Source: an uncultured Bordetella sp. (GTDB taxonomy: Bacteria > Pseudomonadota > Gammaproteobacteria > Burkholderiales > SG8-41). From it: a DNA stretch of 64,000 bases. The stretch is from the NCBI GenBank assembly GCA_964606765.1, contig CAZSIR010000001.1:5988-69987 (forward strand), in the 5' to 3' direction. Shown piece by piece: positions 3,287 through 62,778 of this stretch (within the stretch, counting starts at the first letter, position 1; the number at the start of each line of letters is the position of its first letter). Below the pieces are notes generated by a model, which was given only the letters and a program-made list of their open reading frames with translations, was not told where the DNA came from and ran no database searches. The position numbers and the translations under genes are program-made.

Positions 3287-4000
3287 ATGGACAAGCTGCA
3301 GGTCAGGATCTGGCGCGGTACCGAGCAGGGCGACTTCCAGGATTTCGAAGTGCCGCGGCAGGAAAGCCAGACGGTGCTCGATGTGGTGACCTATGTGCAG
3401 CGCAAATGCGATCCGACGCTGGCCTACCGTTTTGCCTGCCGCGTCGGCGTCTGCGGTTCCTGTGCGATGTCGGTCAACGGGCAGTCGCGCTGGACCTGCC
3501 GCACGCATGTGTCCAAGGTCGCTGCCGACAACAAACTTGAAATAGCCCCTTTGCGCAACCTGCCGGTGGTCAAGGACCTGGTCACCGACATGCGCGAATT
3601 TTTCGACAAGTGGGCGCGCGCCCGCGGCCGTTTCAGCGGCGCCGCTACACGCAAGGACGCGTTTGCCAGCGTCAAGCCGGAGTCGAAGGAACGCAAGCGC
3701 GTCGATGCCGGCATCGAGTGCATCGGCTGCGGGGTGTGTTACAGCGCCTGTGACGTCGTGAGCTGGAACAAGGATTACCTCGGGCCCGCCGCACTGAACC
3801 GCGCCTGGACCCTGATCAACGATGTGCGCGATACCGCGCGCGCCGAGCGCCTGGCCGCGGTGGCGGGGGATGCCGGCTGCCATGCCTGCCATACCCATCT
3901 CAGCTGCACCGAACGCTGCCCCAAAGGGCTGTCGCCGACGGCGGGGATTGCCGGCCTGAAGCGCGCGGTGCTCGCCGCGACGCTCAGCGGCGATATATAA
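3287..4000 (+). CDS. Succinate dehydrogenase/fumarate reductase-type iron-sulfur subunit
   Basis: Three Cys clusters are present: CRVGVCGSCAMSVNG...C (2Fe-2S), CIGCGVCYSAC, and CHACHTHLSCTERCP. At 237 aa the size is typical of SdhB/FrdB. Confidence 0.85.
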   Translation: MDKLQVRIWRGTEQGDFQDFEVPRQESQTVLDVVTYVQRKCDPTLAYRFACRVGVCGSCAMSVNGQSRWTCRTHVSKVAADNKLEIAPLRNLPVVKDLVTDMREFFDKWARARGRFSGAATRKDAFASVKPESKERKRVDAGIECIGCGVCYSACDVVSWNKDYLGPAALNRAWTLINDVRDTARAERLAAVAGDAGCHACHTHLSCTERCPKGLSPTAGIAGLKRAVLAATLSGDI

Positions 4001-4034
4001 AATAATGTTTAAAATCATATATTTACATGTTTTC
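3993..4034 (+). repeat. AT-rich dispersed element, copy A (core AATCATATATTTA at 4013..4025)
   Basis: atatataaaataatgtttaaaatcatatatttacatgttttc in a GC-rich context. It overlaps the TAA stop of the Fe-S subunit gene and is similar to copies at 12971, 26139, 34799, 44634, 52764 and 62733. Confidence 0.8.
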
Positions 4035-4045
4035 GAGGGTTTGAA

Positions 4046-4396
4046 GTGAGTCAGCGCAGCCAAGTCCTGCTGTGGGGAGCGCAGCGCGTCAGCGCGATGG
4101 TGCTGGCGCTGTGCGTGCTGGTGCATCTGCTGACCATGATTTACGCGGTGCGCAGCGGTTTGAGCGCCGCAGAAATTCTCGGCCGCACCCAGGGCAGCGT
4201 CGCCTGGCTTGCGTTCTACACCCTGTTTGTATTTGCGGTCGCGGTGCATGCGCCGATCGGCCTGCGCACCATCATCAGTGAAACCTTCGACTGGCGCGGC
4301 CGCGGTCTGGATGTGCTGACCGGCGTCATCGGCCTGAGCCTGGCGATGTGGGGCATGCGCGCAGTGTTTGGCGTGTTCGGCGGCGGGGCGGCATGA
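4046..4396 (+). CDS. Small hydrophobic membrane-anchor subunit of SDH/FRD-type complex (C-like)
   Basis: 116 aa with a GTG start, three hydrophobic segments and His residues inside helices (VLVHLLTMIY, AVAVHAPIG). It lies directly after the Fe-S subunit gene. Confidence 0.6.
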   Translation: MSQRSQVLLWGAQRVSAMVLALCVLVHLLTMIYAVRSGLSAAEILGRTQGSVAWLAFYTLFVFAVAVHAPIGLRTIISETFDWRGRGLDVLTGVIGLSLAMWGMRAVFGVFGGGAA

Positions 4397-12962: not shown

Positions 12963-12970
12963 TCGGTCAC

Positions 12971-13012
12971 GTATATTTTTAAGTATTTGATTATAAACAG
13001 AATTTTTAAATA
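12971..13012 (-). repeat. AT-rich dispersed element, copy B (inverted orientation; core AATCAAATACTTA on minus strand, 12980..12992)
   Basis: The reverse complement reads ...aaaaattctgtttataatcaaatacttaaaaatatac, close to copy F. It lies 8 nt after the LDH2 stop. Confidence 0.8.
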
Positions 13013-17640: not shown

Positions 17641-17865
17641 CTGGATTCCTCCGTTGGTTTTATTGGTCCGGGCGGCGCGGAATGGAGCAACTGGCCACTC
17701 GTCAGCGGATTTTAGGACGCTAGGCATGACGATGGCAATATTAATTGACAATAGTCTCAATTAAATTCCAGAAAATGGAATATCGGGGTCTTATGACCGA
17801 TTGGGGCCTGAATGGGCCCGCAAAAAAGGGAATCCGTATGCCGGCGGCCGTCACCGGCAGCAGCT

Positions 17866-25145: not shown

Positions 25146-26138
25146 ATGCAGCACGCAAGGCATCACGGTTTCATCGCCGCCGCGGCATGGCTGGCCGCCA
25201 CGCTTCCCGCATTTGCCGCCCAGCCCGTTGCGGATCCCGCTCCCGGTTTCCCCAGCCGTCCCCTGCGCCTGATCGTGCCGTTCACGCCCAGCGGCCCGAA
25301 TGACCAGCTGGCGCGCATGGTCGGTGCGAAGCTGACGGAATCCTGGGGGCAGCAGGTGGTTGTCGACAACCGCCCCGGCGCCGGCACCGTCATCGGCACC
25401 GAACTCGCGGTGCGCTCACCGGCAGATGGACACACGCTGCTGATGATTTCACTCAGCACGGCGGTGAATCCTGTGCTGCAGAAAAAACTGCCGTTCGACA
25501 CGGAAAAGGATCTGGTGCCGCTGATCAACCTGGCGCTGTCGCCGAACGTGCTGGTGGTGCATCCGGGCGTGGCGGCGAGCAATGTCGCCGGCTTGCTGGC
25601 GCTGGCAAAGGCCAAGCCCGGGGACATCATCTATGCCTCCGGCGGTGCGGGCTCGACCACCCATCTGGCGGGCGAACTGCTGGCCAGCATGGGCGGCGTG
25701 AAGATGACCCATGTGCCGTACAAGGGCGCAAGTCCGGCAACCATTGACCTGCTTGGCGGGCGGGTTTCCTGCATGTTCGGCACCATTCTGCCGACCCTGC
25801 CGCACATCAAGTCCGGCAAGCTGCGCGCCATCGGCACCAGTTCGCTGCAACGCTCCCCCGTGTTGCCGGATGTGCCGGCGATTGCCGAAACCCTCAAGGG
25901 ATTTGAAGCGGTATCGTTCTACGGCGTTGCGGTGCCCGCGGGTGTGCCCAGGCCGGTGATGAACAAACTCAATTTCGAAATGGCACGCATCATTACGGCG
26001 GCTGATACCCGGGAGCAGCTGCGCCAGCAGGGCGCCGAAGCCGTGGGCAATTCGCAGGCGGAATTCACTGCATTTTTCCGCAGGCAGATGAGCAAGTGGG
26101 CGGGCGTCATCAAGGCCGCAGGCCTGCAGGCGCAATAG
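25146..26138 (+). CDS. Bug/TctC family substrate-binding protein
   Basis: ATG at 25146 follows aggag. FPSRPLRLIVPFTPSGPND, VDNRPGAGTVIGTE and HVPYKGASPA. Confidence 0.9.
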   Translation: MQHARHHGFIAAAAWLAATLPAFAAQPVADPAPGFPSRPLRLIVPFTPSGPNDQLARMVGAKLTESWGQQVVVDNRPGAGTVIGTELAVRSPADGHTLLMISLSTAVNPVLQKKLPFDTEKDLVPLINLALSPNVLVVHPGVAASNVAGLLALAKAKPGDIIYASGGAGSTTHLAGELLASMGGVKMTHVPYKGASPATIDLLGGRVSCMFGTILPTLPHIKSGKLRAIGTSSLQRSPVLPDVPAIAETLKGFEAVSFYGVAVPAGVPRPVMNKLNFEMARIITAADTREQLRQQGAEAVGNSQAEFTAFFRRQMSKWAGVIKAAGLQAQ

Positions 26139-26174
26139 CATAAAATAATCAATTAAATCAAATATTTAAAATAC
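26139..26174 (+). repeat. AT-rich dispersed element, copy C (core AATCAAATATTTA at 26156..26168)
   Basis: cataaaataatcaattaaatcaaatatttaaaatac lies directly after the TAG stop at 26136..26138. Confidence 0.8.
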
Positions 26175-26227
26175 CCCGCGAAGTTTGCAAGCAAAATACG
26201 GCTTCGCTTTACCGTTTGAGAGAGACC

Positions 26228-27232
26228 ATGATCCAGCCATTCAAAATGCGTATCCACGGTGCCGCACTCGCCTGCAGTGTGGTTCTGGCACTGTGTTTTG
26301 TTGCAAGCGCAGAGGCCGCAGAAGATGCCGCGAAGTATCCGTCCAAGGCGATCCGTTTCATCGTGCCGTTCCCGCCCGGCGGCGGCAATGACACCATCGC
26401 GCGCCTGGTCGGCCAGCAGATGGCATCAACGATGGGGCAGCAGATCATGGTGGATAACCGGCCCGGCGCGGCCGGCGCGCTGGGTGCGCAGATTGCGGCA
26501 ACGTCTCCGGCCGACGGCTACACCATTTTCCTCGCCGGCGTCGGCAGCCACGGACTGAATCCGAACCTGCGCAAGAAACTGCCGTACGACGCCGTCAAGG
26601 ATTTCGATGCGGTGAGCCTGATTGCCTCCGCACCGCTGCTGGTGGTGGTGCATCCGTCGCTGCCGGTGAAATCCGTGAAGGAACTGGTTGCTCTGGCCAA
26701 ATCCAAACCCGGCGCCATCAATTACGCATCCAATGGCACCGGCGGGTCCTCGCACATGGCGGTGGAACTCTTCGACATGATGAGCGGCACGAAAATGCTG
26801 CATGTGCCATACAAGGGACTGACCCCGGCGCTGACCGATCTGCTCTCGGGCGAAGTGCAGGTGATGTTTTCCAGCGCGGTGGCCATGCTGCCGCAGGTGA
26901 AGGCGGGGCGGCTGCGTGCGATAGCAATGACCGGCAGCAAACGTTCCGAAGCCATCCCGGATATTCCCACCGTGGCCGAAGCCGGCGTCAAAGGCTATGA
27001 AACCGGTTCCTGGTACGGCGTGGTTGCGCCGGCCGGCACGCCCAGGTACGCGATTGACAGGCTGAGCAGCGAAATCATCCGCATCACCAAATCACCGCAG
27101 GTCACCAACAAGCTGGTGGAGGAGGCGGTGATACCCGTGGGCAGCACGCCGGTCGAGTTCTCGGCCTATATCAAGTCGGAAATTGCGCGCTGGGGCAAGG
27201 TCATCAAGGCGGGACAGATCAAGATCGAGTGA
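26228..27232 (+). CDS. Bug/TctC family substrate-binding protein
   Basis: YPSKAIRFIVPFPPGGGND, VDNRPGAAGALGAQ and HVPYKGLTPA. The start is uncertain (26228, or 26246 at MRIHG). Confidence 0.9.
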   Translation: MIQPFKMRIHGAALACSVVLALCFVASAEAAEDAAKYPSKAIRFIVPFPPGGGNDTIARLVGQQMASTMGQQIMVDNRPGAAGALGAQIAATSPADGYTIFLAGVGSHGLNPNLRKKLPYDAVKDFDAVSLIASAPLLVVVHPSLPVKSVKELVALAKSKPGAINYASNGTGGSSHMAVELFDMMSGTKMLHVPYKGLTPALTDLLSGEVQVMFSSAVAMLPQVKAGRLRAIAMTGSKRSEAIPDIPTVAEAGVKGYETGSWYGVVAPAGTPRYAIDRLSSEIIRITKSPQVTNKLVEEAVIPVGSTPVEFSAYIKSEIARWGKVIKAGQIKIE

Positions 27233-27287
27233 TCGCGTTCGGGGGCACGGCTCCGGCGGATTCGCAGAGTGCGGGCCCTGCAGCGGC

Positions 27288-28121
27288 TCAGGCCGGTGAC
27301 TGGTACAGATGCACATCCCGCTGCGGAAACGGGATCGAGCAGCCGCCTCTTTCCAGCGCTTCCTTGCAGCGTTGAACCAGATCCAGTTTGGTCACCCACC
27401 AGTCCGCACGCGCAGTCCAGACGCGGAACAGGATATTGACCGAACTGTCGCCCAGGGTTTCCACCTTGATCAGCGGCGCCGGATCATCCAGCACGCGGGG
27501 CTCTTCGGCGGCGATCCGCTGCAGGATGGCCAGCGCCGCATCAATGTCATCGTCGTAGGCGATGCCGTAGGTTTCGTCGATGCGGCGGATGTACTTGTCG
27601 GTGACGGACAGGTTGATGATGGTCTGGCCCCAGATTTCGGAGTTGGGCAGGTGAACGGTGGGTCCGTCGGGCAGGTGGCCGCGGCACAGGAAGAAGCCGA
27701 GGCCGTCGATGATGTACACCTCGCCGTTCAGGCGGATGGAATCGCCGACCTTGAAGGGCCTGAAGAACAGCAGCATGACGCCTGCGGCCACGTTGCTGAG
27801 GGTGCCCTGCAGTGCAAGGCCCACTGCGAGGCCTGCCGCGCCGAGCAGCGCGATCAGGCTGGTGGTTTCCACGCCGAAACGGTTGAGCACCGCGATCAGG
27901 GTCAGGACCAGCACGGCAATGCGCACCATTTGCCCCGGGATCAGGTGAAAAACCGGATCAATCCGCTCGGTCTTGCGCACGGCGCGATCCGTGATCCGTG
28001 ACAGCCAGCCGGCGAGCAGATAACCGGCGATCAGTGTGACGATTGCACCGAGCACATTGATGCCATAGCTGGTCATGTACTGCAGCAGCAGATCGGGAAT
28101 ATGTGTGATTTTTTCGTTCAT
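27288..28121 (-). CDS. Small-conductance mechanosensitive channel (MscS family)
   Basis: Three TM helices, GAAGLAVGLALQGTLSNVAAGVMLLFFRPFKVGD, then a beta-domain. The start is taken at MNEKITH. Confidence 0.85.
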   Translation of the reverse strand: MNEKITHIPDLLLQYMTSYGINVLGAIVTLIAGYLLAGWLSRITDRAVRKTERIDPVFHLIPGQMVRIAVLVLTLIAVLNRFGVETTSLIALLGAAGLAVGLALQGTLSNVAAGVMLLFFRPFKVGDSIRLNGEVYIIDGLGFFLCRGHLPDGPTVHLPNSEIWGQTIINLSVTDKYIRRIDETYGIAYDDDIDAALAILQRIAAEEPRVLDDPAPLIKVETLGDSSVNILFRVWTARADWWVTKLDLVQRCKEALERGGCSIPFPQRDVHLYQSPA

Positions 28122-28452
28122 GGTCCTGGTCCTGTCGGGATTTTTCCGGCCTTGTATGCCGGCAGATTCATGCTGTGCAACACAGCCCCACATATTGATG
28201 GACAGCAGCATCTCGCCATAGGTTCACCCTGCTGCCGGATCCGCGGGCATCGGTTCAGCAGCGGCTGTGGCGCCATCGCGGCATGTCGGTACAAATTTAT
28301 TGCCGGCTGATTCACGGAGTCCTGTATTGACACCACCACCATCAGGCGCGGATAGTGGGCACATGTCACTAATGTGACAAGTCGCGCGGCGCGGTGCCGC
28401 GCGGGTCCTCGCGGCAAGGGGGTGTGCCACGAAACACCTGTTATTCGCCCTG

Positions 28453-29190
28453 ATGATCGCTGCGCCCGGGCTGGCGGGAGCCCAGGCCTTGCTTGATTTC
28501 CGCAATGATCTTGCCTTTGAGGCCACGACGGTCGAGGCCGTCGCCGAGCGGGCGTACCGGGCGCGCCTCGCCAATCTGGCCGCTGACGGGCGGCTCGATG
28601 CTGATCAGGGATTGCTGCGTCGCCTGCGCGACCTCATGGCCAGGCTGCAACCGGCCGTGCTGGTCGAGCGTCCGGATGCAGCAATGATCCAGTGGGAACT
28701 CCATACCTGCAGACGCTGCGGCGAAAATGCTTCGGCCATGGCCGGCGGCAAACTCATGGTCGGCGAGGAATTCATCGCCGAATCGGCTTTTACCGATGAT
28801 GAACTGGGCTACATGCTGGCCCACGAGATGGCGCATGTGCTGGCGGAACATACCCGCGAGTTCGCGACTTATGCGCGGTTTTTTGTCGGCAACGGCCGCA
28901 ACCGCTACTACGAGGACATCCAGAAGGAACTCGACGAGAGTTTCATCGTAAACCGGCGCATGGCCCCGGTTTATATCGAGCAGGAGCTTGAAGCCGACTT
29001 CATGGGCTTCATATTGGGTGCACGAAGCGGCTTTGATCCGGAGGCCATGCCAGGCATGTTGCGCAAGCTGCATGCCGACGGCGCGACGGATTTTTCACTG
29101 CATCCAGACGCGCAGGAACGCATGGTGCGGGCGCTGGCGATGCTGTCCATGGCCCGCCGCATCCGCGAGATGGGCGTGTCAGCGCGCTAG
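28453..29190 (+). CDS. M48-like zinc metallopeptidase
   Basis: HEMAHV (HExxH) with a downstream EQELEAD. The N-terminal MIAAPGLAGAQA resembles the end of a signal peptide. Confidence 0.65.
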   Translation: MIAAPGLAGAQALLDFRNDLAFEATTVEAVAERAYRARLANLAADGRLDADQGLLRRLRDLMARLQPAVLVERPDAAMIQWELHTCRRCGENASAMAGGKLMVGEEFIAESAFTDDELGYMLAHEMAHVLAEHTREFATYARFFVGNGRNRYYEDIQKELDESFIVNRRMAPVYIEQELEADFMGFILGARSGFDPEAMPGMLRKLHADGATDFSLHPDAQERMVRALAMLSMARRIREMGVSAR

Positions 29191-29196
29191 GTCCGG

Positions 29197-29820
29197 CTAT
29201 TTCAGCGGTGGCAGCGGCAGGGGCATGCCATCCGGCACCGGCGTACCGTCCACGTTCAGGCACATCGACACCAGCACGTAAAATCCGTTGACCGAAATCA
29301 GGTCGACGACGCCGCGTTCGCCAAAACGGTCCAGTGCGGTTTTGTAAGTGGCATCGCTGACGCCCTGGGTTTCGTGCAGCTCGCGCGAGAAGCTGTAGAC
29401 GATGGTTTCATCGGCGTCCATGTTCGCCGGTTGCCGGCCCTGCGCGATGTCTTCCGCAATCGCCGGATTCAGGCCGCCCTCCAGCGCCAGCTTGTGATGG
29501 GCGACCCACTCATACTGCGATGTCCAGTGACGTGCCGTGACGAGGATGGCCAGTTCGTTGAGCTTGCCCGCGAGAGAACTGCGGAAACGGATTTCCTCGC
29601 CGAGCTGCTGCACCAGATTGCCGATGCCGGGGCTGCGCAGCCAGACGTTGAAGGGTCCTCCGAGCGGGCCCGGTTTCGAAGCGCCGGAACTGGCAAGCCT
29701 GGCCCGCGGCCCGGATTTGATGGCATCAGTCAGCGTACGCTGCTCGGGGGTCAGCTTTTCCGCCGGGATCAGCTTGAAGCGACGGGAGTCGGTTGCCGCG
29801 GTATTTTTCGCATCACTCAT
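29197..29820 (-). CDS. Carboxymuconolactone decarboxylase (CMD/AhpD-like) family protein
   Basis: ELAILVTARHWTSQYEWVAHHKLALEGG is the CMD-domain pattern. Confidence 0.75.
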   Translation of the reverse strand: MSDAKNTAATDSRRFKLIPAEKLTPEQRTLTDAIKSGPRARLASSGASKPGPLGGPFNVWLRSPGIGNLVQQLGEEIRFRSSLAGKLNELAILVTARHWTSQYEWVAHHKLALEGGLNPAIAEDIAQGRQPANMDADETIVYSFSRELHETQGVSDATYKTALDRFGERGVVDLISVNGFYVLVSMCLNVDGTPVPDGMPLPLPPLK

Positions 29821-29938
29821 GGTCGGGCCCGTTTTCGAAATCAGGAACTTAACATGAACGCAAGAATTTGATGCTAGGATTCGGCCGCGAAATCAGGGTA
29901 AGCGCCAGCACACGATCAACCATCTTATGGACCAAGCC

Positions 29939-30952
29939 ATGACGAAAAAAATATTCACGACCTCAGCCGCAAACCTTCGCCCGTCCCGCCCGTTTCTGCG
30001 CCACTGCCTGCCGCTGTTTGTACTGCTGGCTGCCGTGTCCAGCCAGGCCGCGCTGGCCCAGGCTTTCCCTTCCAAGCCGATCCGTCTCGTGGTGCCCGCT
30101 GCGCCGGGCGGCGGCACGGATGTGCTGGCGCGACTGCTCAGCCCGGAGCTGAACAAGCAGTTCGGCCAGCAGATCGTCATTGAAAACCGCGCCGGCGGCG
30201 CGACCATGATCGGCACCGAGTTCGTCGCGCGCTCGGCCCCCGACGGCCACACCCTGGTCATCGCCACCACGCCGCACGCGATCAATCCGACGCTGTATAA
30301 AAAAATTCCCTATGACCCGGTCAAGGATTTCACGATGATCAGCCAGCTCGGCCTGACCACGACCGTGTTGATCGTACATCCGTCGCTGCCGGTCAAAAAC
30401 GTCAGGGAGTTCATCGCGCTTGCCAAATCAAAGCCGGGACAGCTGACCGCCGGCACCGCCGCCGGAAACTCGGCCTACCTCGCGGTCGAGATGCTGAAGA
30501 CCATGGCGAAGATCGATGCGCTGAACATCCCGTACAAGGGCGCAGGGCAGGCGCTGTCCGACCTGGTCGCCGGTCATATCCAGTTCCAGGTCAACACGCT
30601 GCTGGCTTCGAAGCCGTTCATCGACGCCGGACGTCTGCGCGCGATTGGCGTTTGCAGCGCCAAGCGTTCGGATTCCCTGCCCGGTGTCCAGGCCATCGGT
30701 GAAACCCTGCCGGGATTCAATACCAGCGGCTGGTACGCACTGCTCGGCCCGGCCAACATTCCGCGCGACACCACGCTGCGCATCCACGAAGGGTTTGCCA
30801 AGGCGCTGCGCCTGCCGGAAATCACCAAGCGCCTTGCCGACCAGGGCGTGGAGGTGCTTGCCGGAACGCCGGATGAACTGGCGAAGGTGATGCCGCTGGA
30901 AATCAGGAAGTGGGGTGAGGTCGTCAAATCTTCCGGCGCAACCCCGGGCTGA
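29939..30952 (+). CDS. Bug/TctC family substrate-binding protein
   Basis: FPSKPIRLVVPAAPGGGTD, IENRAGGATMIGTE and NIPYKGAGQA. An alternative start lies at 29927. Confidence 0.9.
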   Translation: MTKKIFTTSAANLRPSRPFLRHCLPLFVLLAAVSSQAALAQAFPSKPIRLVVPAAPGGGTDVLARLLSPELNKQFGQQIVIENRAGGATMIGTEFVARSAPDGHTLVIATTPHAINPTLYKKIPYDPVKDFTMISQLGLTTTVLIVHPSLPVKNVREFIALAKSKPGQLTAGTAAGNSAYLAVEMLKTMAKIDALNIPYKGAGQALSDLVAGHIQFQVNTLLASKPFIDAGRLRAIGVCSAKRSDSLPGVQAIGETLPGFNTSGWYALLGPANIPRDTTLRIHEGFAKALRLPEITKRLADQGVEVLAGTPDELAKVMPLEIRKWGEVVKSSGATPG

Positions 30953-30988
30953 ACGGCGCTGCGGAGGCCCGGGCCCCCGCTTGCGGCA

Positions 30989-31441
30989 TCAGAATCCGCG
31001 GTATTTGTCCGTCGCCAGCAGGCGGATGATTTCCGCGCGCAACTCGGCGATATCGTCTTCACGCAGGGGCTCAAGCTTGCCCATTTCCCTGCGGAAAGCT
31101 TCGCGCGTCGGCGGGAACGCCAGCGCATGGCCCCAGGGTTGCAGGCTTGCGCCGAGCGCGCGGCCGTACAGGTGCACATGCAGCTCTGCGCGCCAGTTGC
31201 CGTTGTCCTGGTAATTGATGCGGCCGATGGTGATGCCTTTGCGCGTGAGCACCGTTTTCAGCGCTTCGCCGCCGACCATGGTCAGCTTCACCAGTTCGAT
31301 CGCCTGCTCGGCCGAGAGCTGCGTGCGGTCTTCCACCGCGACCTTCGGATCAATCACCACATGCCCGCCGTCGCTGCGGGAGACATGCGGCTGGTCCAGC
31401 GTTTTCAGGATGAAGTGCCGGGCTTCATAAATGAGCGCCAT
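30989..31441 (-). CDS. HIT-like family protein with variant histidine triad (HVHLY)
   Basis: 150 aa. GGHVVIDPK...INYQDNGNW.AELHVHLYGR resembles a HIT fold but has Tyr at the third His position. It lies 2 nt downstream of the enolase-superfamily gene. Confidence 0.5.
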   Translation of the reverse strand: MALIYEARHFILKTLDQPHVSRSDGGHVVIDPKVAVEDRTQLSAEQAIELVKLTMVGGEALKTVLTRKGITIGRINYQDNGNWRAELHVHLYGRALGASLQPWGHALAFPPTREAFRREMGKLEPLREDDIAELRAEIIRLLATDKYRGF

Positions 31442-31443
31442 GT

Positions 31444-32502
31444 TCAGTCTTTCAGCGTAAAGCCCAGTCCCGACGCGGCAGGCACATGCAATTTTCCGTC
31501 CCTGAACTCGGGTTCCGTCGCGAAGCGCGCACGCAGCGCGGCATGCGCGCCGTGCACTTCGAGCATGCCGCCATGCGCATGGCCGGCCATCGCGGGCAGG
31601 TTCGCGGCTTCAAAACCGCCGGCGCCGGTGACCGGTACGCCGTGTGCTTCGGCCATTGACAGGATGCGCAGCATGGCGCTGATGCCGCCGCAGAACGCGG
31701 CATTGGGCTGGAGGATGTCGAGCGCGCCGGCATTCAGCACGTCGCGGAACCAGGCCATCGACTGGATCATCTGGCCCGAGGCCAGCGGAATGGCGGTGGC
31801 GCGGCGCAACTCAACAAGTGACGGAATGTCATTGCCGCGCAGCGGCTCTTCGAAAAACGCGATGTCGCAGTCGGCCACCAGACGGGCGAGCCGTTTGGCC
31901 TCGGCAAGCGTAAACGCACAGTTGGCGTCGAGCATCAGCGGTGCGTCGCCGATGGCGCGGCGCACGGCGCGGATGCGTTGTGCATCTTCGGCCAGGCTGC
32001 GTCCGGCGCCGACCAGCATCTTCGCGCCCTGGAAGCCCGCCGCCAGCGCGGCCTTGCAGGCGCCGACCAGTTCCTCCTCACTGAAGGCGGGCAGGCCGGC
32101 CGTGGCATAGGCCTGAACCGCGCTGCGCGCGCCGCCGATCAGGCGCGCGACAGGCTGTCCCAGCCGCTGTCCCTTGATGTCCCACAGCGCCAGATCCAGC
32201 GCCGACATCGCAGACACGAACACGCCGGTGGACTGGCGCGGGTTGAATTTTTTGGCGAGCTGTACGGTGACCGCTTCGATGTCGAGGGGATCCAGGCCCT
32301 TCGCCGCGGCACTGATGCCGCCATTGAGCAGATGCGCCACCTGGTCGGCAAGAAAGCGTCCGGTGACCCCCGTGCCGGACAGGCCCTCGTCGGTGGTCAC
32401 CCGGCAATGCAGGAAAGTCAGGCTTTCCTGTCCGGCATAGGCGTCGGCGGAGCGGGCGGGCTTGATGTGTTCTACCGCGGCGGTGATGCGTTCAATGTGC
32501 AT
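31444..32502 (-). CDS. Enolase superfamily protein (mandelate racemase/muconate lactonizing enzyme family)
   Basis: SALDLALWDIKGQRLGQPVARLIGG, LMLDANCAF and FFEEPL (metal ligands D, E and others). The start is chosen at MHIERI. Confidence 0.85.
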   Translation of the reverse strand: MHIERITAAVEHIKPARSADAYAGQESLTFLHCRVTTDEGLSGTGVTGRFLADQVAHLLNGGISAAAKGLDPLDIEAVTVQLAKKFNPRQSTGVFVSAMSALDLALWDIKGQRLGQPVARLIGGARSAVQAYATAGLPAFSEEELVGACKAALAAGFQGAKMLVGAGRSLAEDAQRIRAVRRAIGDAPLMLDANCAFTLAEAKRLARLVADCDIAFFEEPLRGNDIPSLVELRRATAIPLASGQMIQSMAWFRDVLNAGALDILQPNAAFCGGISAMLRILSMAEAHGVPVTGAGGFEAANLPAMAGHAHGGMLEVHGAHAALRARFATEPEFRDGKLHVPAASGLGFTLKD

Positions 32503-32683
32503 GGCAGTGGCCGGATTCAGTGTCCAGGACAGTCGGTTTGCGGGAACGGCGAGTTTACTGCCCTTGGGCCGGATCGGCATCATGGCATGCGGCGGCGCAT
32601 TCCGTGATTGCTGGCCGTGGTGGCGACGGATAAACTGGCATCCACCTTAAAAAACGCAGGACAGGCGCCCGGGAGATTGCTTG

Positions 32684-33637
32684 ATGAAACGCATCATCGT
32701 GTTTTTGCTGGCGGGTTTTTCTCTGACTGCCTTTGCCCAGTCCTATCCGACCAAACAGGTGCGCATCGTCGTCACCGCCGCGCCCGGCGGTTCGGATGAT
32801 TTCATGGGCCGCATTCTCGCCAAGCAGCTGGGCGATGCGACCGGCAAACAGTTTCTGGTCGAGAATCGTCCCGGCGGCGGCGCGGTGATCGGCCGCCAGT
32901 ATGTCGCCCGTTCCGCGCCTGACGGCTATACGCTGCTGATCGCCGGCAGCGCGATGGCGGCACTGCCCACGCTGTATCCCGCGGTCAAGCTTGACCTGCT
33001 GCGCGATTTCACGCCGATCTCGCTGTTCGCGACCTATCCGCTGATGCTGGTGACACACCCGACCGTGCCGGCGAAATCGGCGAAGGACATCATTGCCATC
33101 GCAAAAAAGAGTCCCGGCAAGCTGAGTTTTGGTTCCTCCGGCATCGGGCAGGGCCCGCATCTCGCAGCCGAGCTGTTCAAGTCCATGGCCGGGATCGACA
33201 TGCTGCATGTGGCGTACAAGGGCAGCGGTCCGGGTTATGTGGATCTGATGGCGGGTCGCATCGACCTGTCGTTCGGCGTGATCGCGGCCGCCATGCAGCA
33301 TGTCAAGACCGGCAAGCTGCGCGCGCTGGGCGTGACCAGCGCCAAGCGCACGGCAGCCGCCATGTCGATACCGACCATCGCCGAAACCGGATTGCCGGGT
33401 TACGATTTTCCGTCGTGGATGGGTTTTTATGGTCCGGCCGGCCTGCCCGACAACATCGTCAAACTGCTCAATGGCGAGGTCAAAAAAATGATCACGCTGA
33501 AGGAAGTGCGTGAACCGATGCTGGAAACCGGGTTGGATCCGACGGCGAGCTCGCCGGAGGAGCTGCGCGAGATGCTGCGCGCCAATATTGACAAGCTCGG
33601 CCGCATCATCACCTCGCAGAACATCAAGATCGAATAA
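32684..33637 (+). CDS. Bug/TctC family substrate-binding protein
   Basis: YPTKQVRIVVTAAPGGSDD, VENRPGGGAVIG and HVAYKGSGPG. ATG at 32684 lies 8 nt after gggag. Confidence 0.9.
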   Translation: MKRIIVFLLAGFSLTAFAQSYPTKQVRIVVTAAPGGSDDFMGRILAKQLGDATGKQFLVENRPGGGAVIGRQYVARSAPDGYTLLIAGSAMAALPTLYPAVKLDLLRDFTPISLFATYPLMLVTHPTVPAKSAKDIIAIAKKSPGKLSFGSSGIGQGPHLAAELFKSMAGIDMLHVAYKGSGPGYVDLMAGRIDLSFGVIAAAMQHVKTGKLRALGVTSAKRTAAAMSIPTIAETGLPGYDFPSWMGFYGPAGLPDNIVKLLNGEVKKMITLKEVREPMLETGLDPTASSPEELREMLRANIDKLGRIITSQNIKIE

Positions 33638-33668
33638 GCCGCAGGGGTTGAATCCCCGAAAGGGCGCC

Positions 33669-34784
33669 ATGTACAAACCTTTCCCTGTCTGCAGTATCGA
33701 GGGTGATGCCCGCGAGTGCGGCATCCAGCACGGCGAGCTGGCGGCCGACCGGGTCGCGAAAACCATCGCCTTCTATCTTGGCGTGTTCGGCCGTCATTCG
33801 AAGCTGTCGCTGGAGCAGGTGCGGGAGCGCGCGCGGGCCTTTGCCGCACAGATTGAAAGCCTGGACGCCGCGATCATGGATGAGATTCGCGGCATTGCCG
33901 AAGGGTCGCGCCAGCAGCTCGAGGACATTGTCGCCGTCAACTGCCGCACCGAACTGATGTACGGCGCCTCCGGCGGCAGCCGTGCCGCCACCGAGTGCAC
34001 CACCATCGTCGCATTGCCCGAGGCTACGCAAGGCCGCGGCGTCATCGTCGGCAAGAACTGGGACTGGCGCAGTCCGGCGCTGGACAGCGTGGTGCTGCTG
34101 CGCATCCGCCAGAACGGCAAACCCGCGCTGTCGCTGATCGTCGAGGCCGGCATGGTGGGCCGCGACGGTTTCAACGAACACGGCATCGTGGTTTGCGGCA
34201 ACATGCTGACCTCCAGCGAGGACAAGGGCAAGGTCGGTGTGCCGATTCCGATCCTGCGCCGGCGCATCCTCAATTCACGGCATTTTTACGAGGCCATAGA
34301 CATACTGACGCGTTCGCCGCGCGGCGCCTCCGGCAACTATGTTCTTGCCCATCGCGACGGGGTCGCGATTGATTTTGAAACCACGCCGGACAATGTGTAC
34401 CCGGTGTATCCGGAGCGCGGACTGCTGACCCACGCCAATCATTTCCAGCACCTGGCGGCGCAGACGCATGGCGTCGCCCGCTCCTACAACGGTGACAGCC
34501 TGTACCGTGATTTCCGCGCGCGCCAGCTGCTCGAGCCGAAAATCGGCGCCATCACCGTCGACGACGTCAAAGCCGTGCTGCGTGATGAGTTCGGCGCACC
34601 GCGGGCGATCTGCCGCGCGCCGCACGAGTACGCGGGGCAGGGTTCCAGCATGACCATCGCCTCGACCATTTTTGACCTGGGCAACATGGTCATGCATGTC
34701 GCTGCGGGCCAGCCCAATCAGTCGGAATACCAGCCGGTCTATCTGCCGGGAGATGGCGGGCGGCAGGCGATCAGGGCGGTATGA
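33669..34784 (+). CDS. C45 family autoproteolytic acyltransferase/hydrolase (acyl-CoA:6-APA acyltransferase-like)
   Basis: G.QHGE at the N-terminus, ECTTIVAL (Cys nucleophile context), GKNWDW and GNYVLA. Confidence 0.75.
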   Translation: MYKPFPVCSIEGDARECGIQHGELAADRVAKTIAFYLGVFGRHSKLSLEQVRERARAFAAQIESLDAAIMDEIRGIAEGSRQQLEDIVAVNCRTELMYGASGGSRAATECTTIVALPEATQGRGVIVGKNWDWRSPALDSVVLLRIRQNGKPALSLIVEAGMVGRDGFNEHGIVVCGNMLTSSEDKGKVGVPIPILRRRILNSRHFYEAIDILTRSPRGASGNYVLAHRDGVAIDFETTPDNVYPVYPERGLLTHANHFQHLAAQTHGVARSYNGDSLYRDFRARQLLEPKIGAITVDDVKAVLRDEFGAPRAICRAPHEYAGQGSSMTIASTIFDLGNMVMHVAAGQPNQSEYQPVYLPGDGGRQAIRAV

Positions 34785-34798
34785 TGCCAGCGGCTCCA

Positions 34799-34832
34799 CA
34801 ATAAATTATTGAATAAAATCAAATAGTTAAGA
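34799..34832 (+). repeat. AT-rich dispersed element, copy D (core AATCAAATAGTTA at 34817..34829)
   Basis: caataaattattgaataaaatcaaatagttaaga lies between convergent genes, 15 nt after the stop at 34784. Confidence 0.8.
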
Positions 34833-34861
34833 CCTTACGTCGATAGTATCCGCTCTGCCAC

Positions 34862-35524
34862 TCAGGCCTTGAGCATGACCCGCAGTTTGGCCACGGCCGC
34901 GCCCGGTGAATTGAAGATCGGAATGCTGCTGACCGCTGCGACCGCCGGCACCGCGCGCGACAGCGTGAACTGCGCGAGCACGATCACATCACAGTCCCTG
35001 ATTTCGCGCGCCCTGGCGGCGACCAGCGCATCGTGTTTTGCCGCATCGCCGCCGGCCAGCGCATCAAAGGCGCCGTCGACGACGTAAGGCTTCAGCTGAA
35101 CCTGCTGCCCGCGTGCCGCGGCCATTTCAAGGATCTCCGCTGAAATGGACGGGATGGTCGGGCCCACCGTTGCCATCACCGCGATGCGCGAGCCCGCAGC
35201 CAGCGCCTGCTCGATCATCGCGTCGTTGGGTTTCAGGATGGGCAGCGGGAATTCGGCGATGCAGGCATCGATGACCTCGCGGAACGCCGAACAGGTGAAG
35301 AGGATGCCGTCGGCGCCGCGCCCGACCATGTGCCGCGTCAGCCCGCGGAACACCTCATACATTTCCGGCACCACGCCGCCGGTCTCGCGCACCCAGGCGA
35401 ACAGCCCGTCATCCAGCAGGTTGCTGATGCGTGCGCCGGGCCAGTCGGTCGCAAATGCCCGCACGGCGGCATCCATCGCGTCCTTGTGTACGCTGAACAG
35501 CACGATATTGGGTTGATGCGCCAT
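34862..35524 (-). CDS. Asp/Glu/hydantoin racemase family protein (arylmalonate decarboxylase-like)
   Basis: DGILFTCSAF and IVLAQFTLS are the two half-site motifs of this fold. 220 aa. Confidence 0.7.
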   Translation of the reverse strand: MAHQPNIVLFSVHKDAMDAAVRAFATDWPGARISNLLDDGLFAWVRETGGVVPEMYEVFRGLTRHMVGRGADGILFTCSAFREVIDACIAEFPLPILKPNDAMIEQALAAGSRIAVMATVGPTIPSISAEILEMAAARGQQVQLKPYVVDGAFDALAGGDAAKHDALVAARAREIRDCDVIVLAQFTLSRAVPAVAAVSSIPIFNSPGAAVAKLRVMLKA

Positions 35525-35677
35525 CGGTCGGGTCCTCTTTCAAAGCATACGGGCCGGGTTCTCCGCGACTCCAGGACATCCGGAATAGTTGTTCCGGCTA
35601 TTTTGACAGGCCGGGGGCACTGTCGCGAATCTGCCATAAATACTTAACACAATGAGCGGCTCCCATCCCGCCAACCA

Positions 35678-36616: not shown

Positions 36617-36737
36617 TTGCGGCTTGTCCGGCCCGCGGCCGTGTCTGCGCCGCGTCGTGATGCCGGGGCATTACGCATGGACTGCGGCCGACGTAAAATA
36701 GGGCCGCCTGTCCAACCCACCGACCCTGCGGAACCCG

Positions 36738-37154: not shown

Positions 37155-37192
37155 ACATCCACCTGATGCAACGAATCCAGAAAGGAATCTCC

Positions 37193-37699: not shown

Positions 37700-37701
37700 A
37701 A

Positions 37702-43910: not shown

Positions 43911-44636
43911 ATGAAACCCGTCAAGTCCTACCGCAACCCGAAGTTCATGAACAGTCCGGATGCGCGCGCCTTGCGCATTCTTGCCGAATATCTTGAACCG
44001 AAAAGCCGGCTCGACGCCGAAGGCGTGGAGGACACCATCACCTTTTTCGGTTCGGCGCGCTTTGAACCGGGCTCGAAATGGTATGAAGCGGCGCGGGCGC
44101 TCGCGTTCCGCCTGACCGAGTGGTCGAAGGGGCTGGGCAGGGAGGGTCAGCGCCGCTTTGTGGTGTGCACCGGCGGCGGGCCGGGCATCATGGAAGCGGC
44201 CAATCGCGGCGCCTCGGATGCGCGCGGACGCAATGTCGGCCTGACGATTTCGCTGCCGCATGAGGAAGCGGTCAACAAGCATGTCACGCGCGAACTGGCG
44301 CTGCATTTCCACTATTTTTTCATGCGCAAATTCTGGCTCGCCTACATGGCCAAGGCCGTCATCGTGTTTCCCGGCGGTTACGGCACGCTGGACGAGCTGT
44401 TTGAACTGCTGACGCTGGTGCAGACGAAGCGCATGACCAAACGCATGCCGATTGTGCTGTTCGGCACTGAATACTGGCGGGAGATCATCAATTTCGAAGC
44501 CCTGGCGCGTCATGGCACCATAGATGCCGCGGACATCGATCTGATGTATCGCACGGATTCGGTGGACGATGCCTTTGAGTGGCTGGTGCGCCAGCTGACG
44601 GCCGAGGCGATCGGCAAACCGGGGCCGATGTTGTAA
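43911..44636 (+). CDS. LOG family / TIGR00730 Rossmann-fold nucleotide-binding protein
   Basis: GGGPGIMEAANRGA and FPGGYGTLDELFE (PGGxGTxxE) are LOG hallmarks. Confidence 0.85.
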   Translation: MKPVKSYRNPKFMNSPDARALRILAEYLEPKSRLDAEGVEDTITFFGSARFEPGSKWYEAARALAFRLTEWSKGLGREGQRRFVVCTGGGPGIMEAANRGASDARGRNVGLTISLPHEEAVNKHVTRELALHFHYFFMRKFWLAYMAKAVIVFPGGYGTLDELFELLTLVQTKRMTKRMPIVLFGTEYWREIINFEALARHGTIDAADIDLMYRTDSVDDAFEWLVRQLTAEAIGKPGPML

Positions 44637-44674
44637 TAAAATAAATCAATAAAATCATATTGTTACGAATAAAC
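44634..44674 (+). repeat. AT-rich dispersed element, copy E (core AATCATATTGTTA at 44653..44665)
   Basis: taataaaataaatcaataaaatcatattgttacgaataaac overlaps the TAA stop of the LOG gene. Confidence 0.8.
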
Positions 44675-44757
44675 CGGGGGAGAAAGGCCATGCTGTACCG
44701 TCTTGCCATAAGGTTCGCACCCTTTCGGTTTCGCGCTTTCAGGCAGGAAAATCCGTC

Positions 44758-51396: not shown

Positions 51397-52767
51397 ATGA
51401 ATACCATTGCTGAGCAGCTCGGCGCCTATGCCGCCGGCCTGCAGTACGAAGACATCCCGCCTGCGGTCATCCACCAGGCGAAGCGCATGATCGTCGACAC
51501 CCTCGGCTGCGCGCTCGGCGGCTATGACAGCGAGCCGACGCGCATCGCGCTGGCGCAGGCGGCCACGATCAGCAGCACCGAGCCTGCCACCATTCTCTGC
51601 ACCGGGCGGCAGACCAGCCCCGAACTTGCCGCCTTCGCCAACGGCGTGATGATCCGCTACCTCGATTACAACGACGGCTACATCGGGCGCGAAGCCGGGC
51701 ATCCCAGCGACAGCATCGGCGCGCTGCTGTCGGCGGCGGAAATCGGCAGGGCCGACGGCCGCGAACTGATCGTCGCCACGGTGATTGCCTATGAAATGTT
51801 CTGCCGCATGTGCGACATCGTCAATTTCAAGCCGATGGGTTTCGACCACACCACCATCGGCGCCATGGCCAGCGTGCTGGGCGTGTCGCGGCTGCTCGGG
51901 CTCGACCGTGAACAGACGGCCACCGCGCTGAGCATCACCGTCGCCGCCAACGTCGCGCTGTACCAGACGCGCATCGGCAACGTGTCGATGTGGAAGGGCT
52001 GCGCCTATGCCAACACCAGCCGCAACGCGATATTTTTCGCGCAGATGGCCAAACGCGGCATGACCGGGCCCTCGCCGGTGTTCGAAGGACGCGGCGGCTA
52101 TTTTGTCGCGGTGACGCGCAAGCCCTTCGAGCTTGCGCCCTTCGGCGGCAGGGGCCAGCCTGAATTCAGGATCATGGACTGCCTGATCAAGCGCTACCCG
52201 CTGGGCCAGTATTCGCAGTCGGTGGTGCACGCTGCGCTTGAAGCCCGCGCCCGTGTGAAAAACATCGACGACATCGCCGAAATCCACGTGCGCACACTGC
52301 ACACGGCGATTGAAATGATGGCCGGGGATCCCGACAAGTGGAAACCCGCGAATCGTGAAACCGCCGACCACAGCATGCCTTACACCGCGGGGGTGGCGCT
52401 GAAATACGGCGTCATCGACATCCAGTACTTCGACGATCCTTACCTGCATGATCCCGCGCTGCTGGCGCTGGTCGCAAAAATCAAATGCACGGTGTCGGAG
52501 GAAGCCAACAGCCGCGAGCCCGAGGCCATGCTCTGCGACATGGATGTGGTGATGAAAAACGGCAAACGCGAGGCGATCCGCGTGGAATACCACCGCGGCC
52601 ATCCGAAGAACCCGATGTCGGATGCGGAGATCGAAGAAAAATTCCGCTCGCTTGCCGGCAGCCAGATGCCGGCATCGCAGGTCGATGCGCTGCTCGGTCA
52701 ACTGTGGCAACTCGACACGCTGAAGTCCATGGAACCGTTGTTTGCATTGACCCGAATCAGGAGTTAA
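51397..52767 (+). CDS. MmgE/PrpD family protein (2-methylcitrate dehydratase-like)
   Basis: 456 aa. DTLGCALGG, GHPSD and ADHSMPY are typical MmgE/PrpD motifs. Confidence 0.85.
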   Translation: MNTIAEQLGAYAAGLQYEDIPPAVIHQAKRMIVDTLGCALGGYDSEPTRIALAQAATISSTEPATILCTGRQTSPELAAFANGVMIRYLDYNDGYIGREAGHPSDSIGALLSAAEIGRADGRELIVATVIAYEMFCRMCDIVNFKPMGFDHTTIGAMASVLGVSRLLGLDREQTATALSITVAANVALYQTRIGNVSMWKGCAYANTSRNAIFFAQMAKRGMTGPSPVFEGRGGYFVAVTRKPFELAPFGGRGQPEFRIMDCLIKRYPLGQYSQSVVHAALEARARVKNIDDIAEIHVRTLHTAIEMMAGDPDKWKPANRETADHSMPYTAGVALKYGVIDIQYFDDPYLHDPALLALVAKIKCTVSEEANSREPEAMLCDMDVVMKNGKREAIRVEYHRGHPKNPMSDAEIEEKFRSLAGSQMPASQVDALLGQLWQLDTLKSMEPLFALTRIRS

Positions 52768-52799
52768 AAAATGTTTAAAATCAAATACTTATATAAATC
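52764..52799 (+). repeat. AT-rich dispersed element, copy F (core AATCAAATACTTA at 52779..52791)
   Basis: ttaaaaaatgtttaaaatcaaatacttatataaatc spans the PrpD-like stop (52765..52767) and the first 9 codons of the next Bug ORF. Confidence 0.8.
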
Positions 52800-53778
52800 T
52801 GTCCGCCCATGCGCCGTTCTCGCCGTATGGGCGCTGCCTTTTGCGCTGCTGGTTGCGCAGGCACAGGCCGCGGCTGCAGACGACTATCCCTCGCGACCGG
52901 TGCGCGTACTGGTGCCCAATCCGCCGGGTGGCGGCAGCGATGCCGTCGCGCGCATCCTCGCGCAGAAGCTCGGCGAGCGCATGGGCCAGCAGTTCGTCGT
53001 CGACAACCGCGCGGGCGGCGGCGGCATCATCGCCAATGAAACCGTGGCGCGCGCCAATCCCGACGGCTACACGCTGCTGCTCGCCTTCATCGGCCCGGTG
53101 GCCATCAGCCCGGCGCTGCAGAAGGTGCCCTACGATTCGGTGAAGGATTTCATGCCGGTCGCGCTGGTCGCTGCGGGCCAGTACATGCTGGTGCTGCATC
53201 CCTCGGTGCCGGCGAAGTCGCTGAAGGATTTTGTCGCTTACGCCAAGGCCAATCCCGGCAAGATCAATTATGCTTCCGCCGGCAACGGTTCGCCGCTGCA
53301 TCTGGCGGCGGAACTGTTCAAGGCGCGCGCCGGGGTGAACCTGGTGCATGTGCCGTACAAGGGCGGCGGTCCCGCCACTGCGGCCATCCTCGCCGGTGAA
53401 GTACAGGCCGTGTTCGGCAGCCTGACGTCGGTCGTGCCGCAGATCAAGGCCGGCAAACTGACGCCGATCGGCGTCACCGGCGCCAAACGCTCCGCGCTGG
53501 CGCCGGAATATCCGACCATCGCCGAACTCGGCTATCCCGGTTTCGAGATGACATCCTGGTACGGCATCCTGCTGCCGGCGCGTTCACCCGCGACCGTGGC
53601 GGCAAAACTGAATGCGGGCCTGAATGAAGCCCTGCGCGCGAAGGATGTGGTTGATGCGCTGAAGCGCCAGGGACTGGATGCCACCGGCGGCACGCCGGAA
53701 GCATTCGCCGCGCACATCAAGACTGAACTCGCGAAATGGGCGAAAGTGGTGAAAGACGCAGGCATCAAGGCGGATTAA
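52771..53778 (+). CDS. Bug/TctC family substrate-binding protein
   Basis: YPSRPVRVLVPNPPGGGSD, VDNRAGGGGIIANE and HVPYKGGGPA. The only in-frame start (ATG at 52771) lies inside the AT-rich element. Confidence 0.85.
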   Translation: MFKIKYLYKSVRPCAVLAVWALPFALLVAQAQAAAADDYPSRPVRVLVPNPPGGGSDAVARILAQKLGERMGQQFVVDNRAGGGGIIANETVARANPDGYTLLLAFIGPVAISPALQKVPYDSVKDFMPVALVAAGQYMLVLHPSVPAKSLKDFVAYAKANPGKINYASAGNGSPLHLAAELFKARAGVNLVHVPYKGGGPATAAILAGEVQAVFGSLTSVVPQIKAGKLTPIGVTGAKRSALAPEYPTIAELGYPGFEMTSWYGILLPARSPATVAAKLNAGLNEALRAKDVVDALKRQGLDATGGTPEAFAAHIKTELAKWAKVVKDAGIKAD

Positions 53779-62639: not shown

Positions 62640-62732
62640 CGTGGTTCTCCTCCCACAGCATGCGACGCAAAAAACAAGGGGCCGGGTTTTTGTTCTCCGG
62701 CCCCTCAACAATAGCGCGACTCCCGCTTTTGC

Positions 62733-62770
62733 AAAAAATATCAATTAAATCATATAGTTACGATATTTTC
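62733..62770 (+). repeat. AT-rich dispersed element, copy G (core AATCATATAGTTA at 62748..62760)
   Basis: aaaaaatatcaattaaatcatatagttacgatattttc lies between two minus-strand Bug genes, 9 nt beyond the stop at 62779. Confidence 0.8.
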
Positions 62771-62778
62771 GCGGGCTT

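Follow-up and report, generated by a model that had tools for sequence, protein, structure and literature searches.

A dispersed AT-rich repeat of about 37 bp with an IHF-type core at gene junctions of uncultured Burkholderiales

Introduction

Bacterial repeats that carry a site for an architectural DNA-binding protein are already known. Here we analyse a family of AT-rich elements of about 37 bp with a core of the integration host factor (IHF) type, seven copies of which lie in a 64,000-nucleotide stretch of DNA from an uncultured Bordetella sp. (GTDB order Burkholderiales, SG8-41; contig CAZSIR010000001.1, positions 5,988 to 69,987 of the forward strand), hereafter called the window. An earlier note on this DNA had described seven AT-rich islands with an IHF-consensus core, each beside a stop codon, and had not recognised them as a described repeat family. 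Our literature searches are in line with this: they gave no description of the family, and the strings matching its core were unrelated primers only.

Among the closest described systems are the RIB/RIP elements (BIME-1). According to PMC2817692, these are interspersed extragenic elements with a consensus IHF site, found where genes or transcription units end (3') and present in tens to hundreds of copies; the same paper, citing Boccard & Prentki 1993, states that the BIME-1 inter-REP sequence binds IHF. The present family resembles them in its dispersal, in its number of copies and in its site, and most of its copies abut a stop codon. In RIB/RIP, however, the IHF site links two inverted REP palindromes, whereas here the palindromes are absent and the IHF-type site stands alone; furthermore, RIB/RIP elements belong to E. 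coli and the enterobacteria, while the hosts here are uncultured Burkholderiales and many copies are situated inside operons or on start or stop codons.

The Correia elements (NEMIS) of Neisseria are likewise small non-autonomous intergenic insertions with an IHF site, with stop codons in many frames and with both filled and empty sites, and the 155-bp Correia element was found to bind IHF in vitro (PMC2229807). They differ from the present family in their size of 100-155 bp, their 26-bp terminal inverted repeats (TIRs), their TA duplication and their RNase III-processed RNA hairpins, as the elements described here measure about 37 bp and possess neither TIRs, nor a target-site duplication (TSD) of at least 3 bp, nor structure. 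Since it lacks the palindromes of RIB/RIP and the TIRs, TSD and size of Correia elements, the family is a member of neither. REP/REPIN-RAYT systems offer a further parallel, being short, abundant and vertically inherited, with lineage-specific master sequences and long-lived positions (PMC8049555, PMC2817692). In contrast to the AT-rich, non-palindromic family analysed here, for which Pfam scans of the window revealed no associated transposase, REPs are GC-rich imperfect palindromes that are read as hairpins.

Single IHF sites, such as lambda attP H', those of sigma-54 promoter regions and those at the ends of IS1 and IS10, have a core of the form WATCAANNNNTTR, an A/T tract upstream of it and a footprint that measures about 35 bp. 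In the lambda H' site, the A-tract is reportedly located about one helical turn 5' of the core. The elements of the present family, at about 37 bp, come close to the length of such a footprint and share its architecture. Unlike those sites, which evolved in place and serve a local function, they represent one sequence copied to many loci in both orientations and with no consistent partner. The IHF consensus is given in Table 2 of PMC6907758, where the IHF and H-NS rows look swapped.

Results

Seven copies of one family in the window

The window is GC-rich (about 60-68% as measured per 1-kb step). The relaxed IHF pattern WATCAWNNNNTTR occurs in it exactly seven times, with core starts at 4013+, 12980-, 26156+, 34817+, 44653+, 52779+ and 62748+, and these are precisely the sites at which the earlier note had placed its seven copies. 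The expectation from 100 shuffles was 1.27 matches, with a maximum of four and none of the 100 reaching seven, so that the motif is far commoner in the window than chance would have it. The match to WATCAANNNNTTR is perfect in B, C, D and F, while A, E and G each carry one mismatch (T at position 6), as had been noted. The copies are as follows.

3991..4034, plus strand: copy A, of the ATGTTT variant, inside an operon, where its neighbours by Pfam are frdB (Fer2_3/Fer4) and frdC (Sdh_cyt); the frdB stop TAA (3998-4000) lies in its left arm; nhmmer E 4e-5
12970..13012, minus strand: copy B, inverted, between the stop of an Ldh_2 gene (12960-12962) and the start of recQ (13022)
26139..26174, plus strand: copy C, between two co-directional TctC/Bug genes, starting 0 nt after a TAG stop (26136-26138); nhmmer E 2.7e-5
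34799..34833, plus strand: copy D, TTGAAT variant, between a convergent AAT-family gene (33510-34784, plus) and an Asp/Glu racemase gene (34862-35524, minus); nhmmer E 0.005
44634..44676, plus strand: copy E, overlapping the TAA stop of a LOG/Lysine_decarbox gene, upstream of a DUF3500 gene; E 4.7e-5
52764..52800, plus strand: copy F, ATGTTT variant; a TctC/Bug gene (MFKIKYLYKS...) starts at its ATG, 52771, with an SD-like (Shine-Dalgarno-like) caggag upstream and the stop of a PrpD-like gene at 52765-52767
62729..62771, plus strand: copy G, antisense to the TctC genes on its two sides; the stop of 62779-63756(-) is 8 nt away, and the copy lies about 95 nt upstream of the point where the next minus-strand gene is called to start (62639); nhmmer E 4e-7, 29.4 bits

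A 28-nt pattern of the family, WWAAWWWATSWWTWAAATCAWATWNTTA, which takes in the upstream arm, matches five of the seven copies, against 0.00 expected, and seven of the 11 AT-rich islands of the window (at least 20 of 25 bases A/T) are members of the repeat family. In addition, an nhmmer profile trained on copies from other genomes and then run on the window finds all seven: G, F, C, A and E at E = 4e-7 to 5e-5, D at E = 0.005, and B weakly at E = 0.64. Copy G is the nearest of the seven to the family consensus and copy B the most degenerate, its membership being confirmed through orthologues that are better preserved. Chance AT-rich DNA is ruled out by the motif counts, the 28-nt pattern and the island census.

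The note's account of placement relative to stop codons and of orientation was borne out. The stops at 3998-4000, 44634-44636 and 52765-52767 lie inside copies A, E and F, respectively; C, B and D follow a stop by 0, 8 and 14 nt; and G ends 8 nt before one. Orientation relative to the genes is not conserved, with B inverted, G antisense to both neighbours and D between convergent genes.

The spacing of the seven copies is unusually regular: the gaps measure 8.1-13.2 kb, and their coefficient of variation is 0.18 (P about 3-5e-4 relative to points, or gene junctions, drawn at random). No extra copy was observed within 6.7 kb upstream or 9.7 kb downstream of the window. Other genomes hold pairs of copies 2-7 kb apart, so the even spacing may not be general.

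Conservation of the IHF-specified positions

The core of the family consensus, AATCAAATACTTA, is a perfect match to the IHF core, and the orthologues of copy A, which were found in 11 other genomes, allowed the conservation of individual positions to be followed. Site A was ascertained through protein homology and not by the motif, and the values given here are mean pairwise identities across 11 genomes. Identity at the nine core positions that the IHF consensus specifies is 0.88, while it is 0.44 at the four N positions; in the flanking frdB and frdC genes, codon position 3 reaches 0.58 and codon positions 1+2 reach 0.94. The R position alternates solely between A and G, as it also does at site E and at the Peptidase_M32 (M32) site. 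Within the core, no other window of four columns is as variable as the four N columns, at site A and at site B alike. The inverted site B, with five orthologues, displays a weaker trend (specified positions about 0.91, N positions about 0.70) which is driven mainly by a single locus, L219. Among the few loci tested, the conservation profile of site A thus mirrors the IHF consensus. Since the inverted copy B shows the same trend and the peptides of a mini-ORF (a short open reading frame, ORF) at site A are not conserved, the constraint acts on DNA rather than on RNA or peptide.

Insertion origin and positional stability

The note had proposed that orthologous junctions be compared for presence and absence of the element, and both filled and empty states were found at three of them: the frdB-frdC junction, the PrpD-Bug junction and the 3' end of the Peptidase_M32 gene. 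For the frdB-frdC comparison, 80 metagenomic relatives of FrdB were employed. All relatives with a FrdB identity of 87-92% carry a copy at this junction, while those at or below 83% have either no spacer, the frdB stop overlapping the frdC start (GTGA, TGATG), or unrelated repeats instead. The PrpD-Bug junction (site F) is empty in L212 and L214, with 5-17 nt between stop and ATG, and the Peptidase_M32 site holds a copy in L220 and in L222, with none in L221.

Sites A and B are both occupied, in the same orientation, in four syntenic 21-kb loci of relatives (Ldh_2 identity 82-90%), those of copy B being L216-L219; no other copies have been gained in these four loci. Counted with the window, five syntenic genomes thus retain both. 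An orthologue of copy E follows the same LOG-family gene in L221 (12807-12830), though the neighbourhood there differs. The copies are derived insertions that are old and inherited at fixed positions.

In the distant relatives, the frdB-frdC junction instead harbours tandem heptamers (GGATGAG/GGATGAA, GTGATAC/GTGATAG, AGTGCAA, GAGTGAC), with an inverted copy downstream in some. These are located just after the FrdB match in L123, L124, L125, L129, L131, L133 and L137, and the junction appears to be a hotspot for different families of intergenic repeats.

Family structure and distribution in other genomes

The family consensus, TAAAAATATCAATAAAATCAAATACTTATAAAWW, extends over about 37 bp (90 exact copies, 99 profile hits) and has sharp edges, beyond which the flanking sequence is not conserved. 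The conserved block corresponds to model positions 8-45, with an A5 tract at positions 10-14 and the core starting at position 24; the A/T tract that the note had placed upstream of the core is therefore present, ending 9 bp before it. Three variants occur at positions 18-20, namely CAA (about 76%), GTT (about 13%) and GAA (about 7%), and they recur at non-orthologous loci in many genomes. As GTT and CAA differ at three bases, the variants represent subfamilies spread by copying rather than parallel mutations. No variant diagnostic of a particular genome was found among the genomes with this (type-1) pattern, identical variants recurring everywhere.

The consensus folds at 0 kcal/mol on both strands, and the folding of the consensus and of the window copies is no better than that of shuffles, with no inverted repeats or hairpins. 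This excludes a hairpin-based element of the REP, PATE or attC-like kind. The ends of the consensus are not complementary, and thus no TIRs are present; among 86 copies, no excess of 3-9 bp direct repeats was observed for any choice of boundary, while a 2-bp TA duplication may be present at the AT-rich edges. A classical MITE (a miniature transposable element with inverted repeats) is rejected on these grounds. Similarly, isolated left or right half-elements are absent from 658 kb of related DNA, which rules out the fused ends of a larger insertion sequence (IS). These results agree with the note, which had seen neither hairpin nor target duplication nor transposase gene: RAYT is absent from the window by Pfam scans, no genome-wide RAYT search having been made. 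A conserved 3' GC-rich or SD-like module was also considered and rejected, as CCGG and CGGRG are weakly enriched (21 vs 10) and not a consistent part of the element.

Rfam gave no match at gathering threshold across the whole window, so a known RNA family is rejected. Scanning 25500-45400 for promoters and terminators gave neither kind of signal at copies D and E and nothing promoter-like at C; the one hit nearby was a weak hairpin on the minus strand, its T run formed by the edge of copy C. Apart from this hairpin, the copies scanned match neither a sigma-70 promoter nor an intrinsic terminator.

A scan of species-representative genomes with WWAAWWWATSWWTWAAATCAWATWNTTA returned at least 112 stretches. 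About 85 of the matches listed lie in genomes of at least 55% GC, though chance should favour AT-rich genomes, and the carriers at this GC content are nearly all metagenome-assembled genomes (MAGs) of uncultured Burkholderiales or Betaproteobacteria from lakes, streams, soil and reactors. The pattern recurs within each of at least 20 such GC-rich MAGs; among the matches listed, VGIF01 has at least 19 loci, JAHCLD01 at least 12, JAYUAH01 at least 10 and JAIETP01 at least nine. In total, 90 exact copies in 85 loci were gathered with the type-1 pattern. At least 20 related genomes hold the family many times over, in both orientations and in all gene contexts. A phage origin was considered and set aside: each of the 14 matches in IMG/VR falls in an AT-rich contig (25-46% GC), and they look fortuitous.

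Single copies of WWAAWWWATSWWTWAAATCAWATWNTTA form sharp AT islands in unrelated genomes of 50-60% GC, including a Pseudomonas sp., Aliidiomarina maris, a MAG labelled Myxococcota and others (L009 491-518, L106 5623-5650, L105 6458-6485 and L061 4152-4179). Their neighbours are unrelated to one another (subtilase, P-II, alpha-2-macroglobulin, histidine kinase). These copies outside the clade may reflect horizontal spread or convergent IHF-type sites.

Gene context and host accommodation

For 86 copies from related genomes, with the element read as plus, 40 of the flanking gene pairs are +/+, 22 are -/-, 15 are convergent and nine are divergent, and the downstream gene is co-oriented in 49 of the 86. 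The orientation of the element is independent of that of the flanking genes. Together with the unstructured consensus and the inverted copy B with its identical core, this supports the note's view of a DNA-level element rather than an RNA signal. A polarity relative to replication was also dismissed: six of the seven window copies are on the strand of positive GC skew, but the split is 35 vs 58 across 93 copies elsewhere.

The element frequently occupies the entire spacer between two genes. Where the upstream gene is on the same strand, its stop is within a few nucleotides of the left edge of the element in 37 of 55 cases, and 13 of these 37 genes use the element's own TAA at positions 9-12; for convergent genes, the stop falls inside the right edge in 11 of 37. 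The consensus contains stop codons in two of three forward and two of three reverse frames. Several copies are located inside operons (site A) or at gene starts. The adjacency to stops is best attributed to insertion in very short junctions and to stops that the element itself supplies, and not to a function in termination.

The host genes appear to have accommodated the insertions in two ways. At the frdB-frdC junction, the element opens a short reading frame:

4005..4049, plus strand: mini-ORF MFKIIYLHVFEGLK*, starting at the ATG of copy A; its TGA stop and the GTG at which frdC starts (4046) overlap

A mini-ORF of 14-17 codons is kept in all eight orthologous filled junctions checked by script (the window, L092 and L115-L120). 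It ends in ATGA, GTGA or TGATG on the frdC start, and its frame is maintained across four lengths despite indels; in L115, the start register is different. As the ancestral empty site is a direct overlap of stop and start and the frame is kept, this looks like selection restoring translational coupling between frdB and frdC. Furthermore, since site A is transcribed and translated through, the element is not a terminator.

Elsewhere, 12 long ORFs start at the element's ATG with the sequence M(F/N/I/L)K(I/N)(K/N)(Y/V/C)L followed by a signal peptide, so that about the first seven residues are encoded by the element. They represent at least five different genes, mostly of the TctC/Bug type, and are found in the window (52771) and in L069, L088 (two genes), L091, L102, L215 and L220-L222. 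More than 40 orthologue clusters of the gene at 52771 begin with MFKNKYLY or MFKIKYLY, while other orthologues of similar identity, including those of empty loci, have ordinary N-termini.

Other features of the window

TctC/Bug genes are very dense in the window, with nine confirmed by Pfam (examples at 6309, 25122, 26216, 46822, 52771, 53945, 59301, 61656 and 62779) and further ones on the same contig. Large numbers of these periplasmic binding proteins are typical of Burkholderiales. A link of the element to one gene family was rejected, as its neighbours are diverse and TctC genes are simply numerous in this DNA. No IHF or HU gene was observed among the scanned small ORFs of the window.

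Two AT islands outside the family were also recorded. The island at 49568-49617 separates the divergent genes 47944-49509(-) and 49674-50789(+); in it, the motif TGTGAAAT...TTTCACA recurs and resembles CRP/FNR-type palindromes, for example TGTCAAATTTTTCACA. The island at 17737-17783, AATATTAATTGACAATAGTCTCAATTAAATTCCAGAAAATGGAATAT, includes the short inverted repeats ATTCCA...TGGAAT, and a similar island, TTCCATAAAATGGAAT, is present in L216 (16978-17002).

Discussion

We tentatively favour the proposal, at a confidence just short of even, that the copies are dispersed DNA-level sites, seeded by copying, for IHF or a protein whose recognition pattern is that of IHF. A sequence of about 37 bp would have been copied into many gene junctions in an ancestor of the uncultured Burkholderiales clade, the insertions landing at, or a few bases from, stop codons and then being inherited at fixed positions. 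Copies would survive only in the very short spacers of tightly packed genes, with upstream ORFs ending inside the element. Selection would keep the bases that IHF recognises (an A-tract, about 9 bp, then WATCAA-N4-TTR), and the copies would act on double-stranded DNA as architectural sites in the nucleoid. Given this selective retention, they would most likely be high-affinity sites, dispersed through the genome, for a bending protein of the IHF type. With regard to what the note had put forward, the consensus match, the A-tract and the insertion origin stood, and binding itself is predicted from sequence. That a protein binds, which protein this would be, what its effect would be (bending, looping, supercoil-domain or promoter effects) and how the copies were made are matters that we infer.

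Several observations weigh against this proposal. The IHF assignment relies on a match within one family, and since all copies share ancestry, the resemblance is effectively a single match, of a kind that a random AT-rich 37-mer of such composition would make in about 1% of cases by our estimate. Most of the conservation statistic comes from a single locus, at which the element and a mini-ORF overlap; however, the peptide shows no conservation, and another frame is used in one orthologue. An A replaces the T of WATCAA in the lineages described below and in roughly half of the orthologues of site A, and the family is conserved over about 28 positions, more than IHF needs. An IHF site inside the frd operon would have no evident use, and the proposal does not account for a copying mechanism, which would have left no TIR and no TSD of 3 bp or more.

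A further difficulty is presented by two related genomes, L219 and L222, which carry a type-2 core, AAACAAYGAGTTR, and its relatives at all their copies (L219 2195-2225 and 11038-11081; L222 1414-1461, 10998-11040 and 18816-18856). These include sites orthologous to type-1 copies, sites A and B among them. The type-2 core has one mismatch to the IHF consensus (T to A), and it is found neither in the window nor in the 85 loci gathered with the type-1 pattern. The pattern suggests concerted evolution via gene conversion, replacement or co-evolution with a lineage-specific protein, and it looks more like the work of a lineage-specific cognate protein or of gene conversion than of the highly conserved IHF.

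Hence, a doubtful but serious alternative is that the copies serve as cognate sites for a protein that is specific to the lineage and is not IHF (for example a transposase or nuclease, domesticated and in a RAYT-like role, or a nucleoid protein paralogue), which spread them and keeps them uniform, the likeness to IHF being incidental. It would explain the consensus of about 28 conserved positions, the discrete subfamilies common to several genomes, and a core type that tracks lineage, as REP-like populations co-evolving with a dedicated protein are described to behave (PMC8049555, PMC2817692); it would also accommodate the single copies in Pseudomonas, Aliidiomarina and other genomes of roughly 50-54% GC, which are not expected by chance. 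However, no candidate protein is encoded in the window or beside the copies, the hairpin that enzymes of the Y1/RAYT type need is absent, and there are neither solo halves nor an IS-like context. No copies have been gained among the syntenic genomes, and thus there is no sign of ongoing activity. Moreover, the conserved and free positions of site A follow exactly the IHF pattern, and the type-2 sample is small (six copies).

An unlikely possibility is a selfish, non-autonomous miniature insertion of no host function that decays slowly and persists because deletion is difficult. Orthologous sites that are both filled and empty, subfamilies that point to copy-and-paste spread, site-A copies that have drifted from the consensus in several lineages and the compensations made by the host (the bridging mini-ORF and new start codons) would all be expected of such an element. 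It is at odds with the lack of TIRs, of a TSD of at least 3 bp and of a hairpin, and a length of 37 bp is smaller than that of any described MITE. An identity of 88% in the core versus 58% at synonymous positions and 44% at the N positions indicates purifying selection on individual copies, which a selfish element does not predict, and both the A and B copies are retained in all syntenic genomes.

It is decidedly improbable that the element acts at the RNA level, as an unstructured AU-rich stretch (an S1 site or translation enhancer, an RNase E entry site or an A-rich Hfq site) tuning the downstream gene. The element is indeed wholly unstructured, frequently lies immediately upstream of a start codon, in some cases with no SD sequence, is transcribed within the operon at site A, and is translated in the mini-ORF and in the Bug genes. 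Nevertheless, the co-directional copies comprise 40 sense and 22 antisense, with 15 more between convergent genes, and an RNA factor would not read the complement; the inverted site B has the same DNA core; conservation is base-specific (CA...TTR), beyond mere AU-richness; and convergent sites such as D have no downstream start codon.

Finally, promoter or UP-element modules, or nucleation sites of an H-NS-like silencer, are very hard to credit. In their favour, promoters and H-NS targets typically show up as AT islands where the DNA is GC-rich, the 3' part of the element reads TATAAA, and TCAATAAAAT, in the main subfamily, agrees with the high-affinity H-NS motif TCGATAAATT (PMC6907758 Table 2) at 8 of 10 positions. 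Against them, C, D and E have no promoter-like match, and no -35 is present at the proper distance; just 30% of the copies have T as the sixth base of the putative -10, and a co-oriented gene follows downstream in just 49 of 86; the decamer is lost in the GTT and GAA subfamilies, which are nonetheless retained; the conserved block is the IHF core; and silencing inside the frd operon is implausible.

To return to dispersed IHF-type sites, an extension of this proposal, which we regard as a long shot, would treat the evenly spaced sites (about 10 kb apart in the window) as maintained loop anchors or supercoil-domain barriers at gene boundaries, co-evolving with their binder so that type 1 and type 2 divide by lineage. 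If true, the family would constitute a chromosome-organising system that, in an uncultured clade of the Burkholderiales, would parallel the BIMEs without having their palindromes.

If binding of the IHF type holds, the family would represent a minimal dispersed architectural site, in which a bare site of about 37 bp was multiplied and then long kept by selection. It would also provide a natural system in which to ask what role interspersed IHF sites play at the ends of genes, a question still open for the RIB/RIP elements of E. coli. The insertions illustrate, in addition, how a host adapts to them in packed operons, through a bridging mini-ORF and through the repeated recruitment of the element's ATG and Lys-rich codons to form the start and the n-region of TctC/Bug signal peptides. 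Lastly, the family could serve as a practical marker for this clade of uncultured freshwater and soil Burkholderiales.

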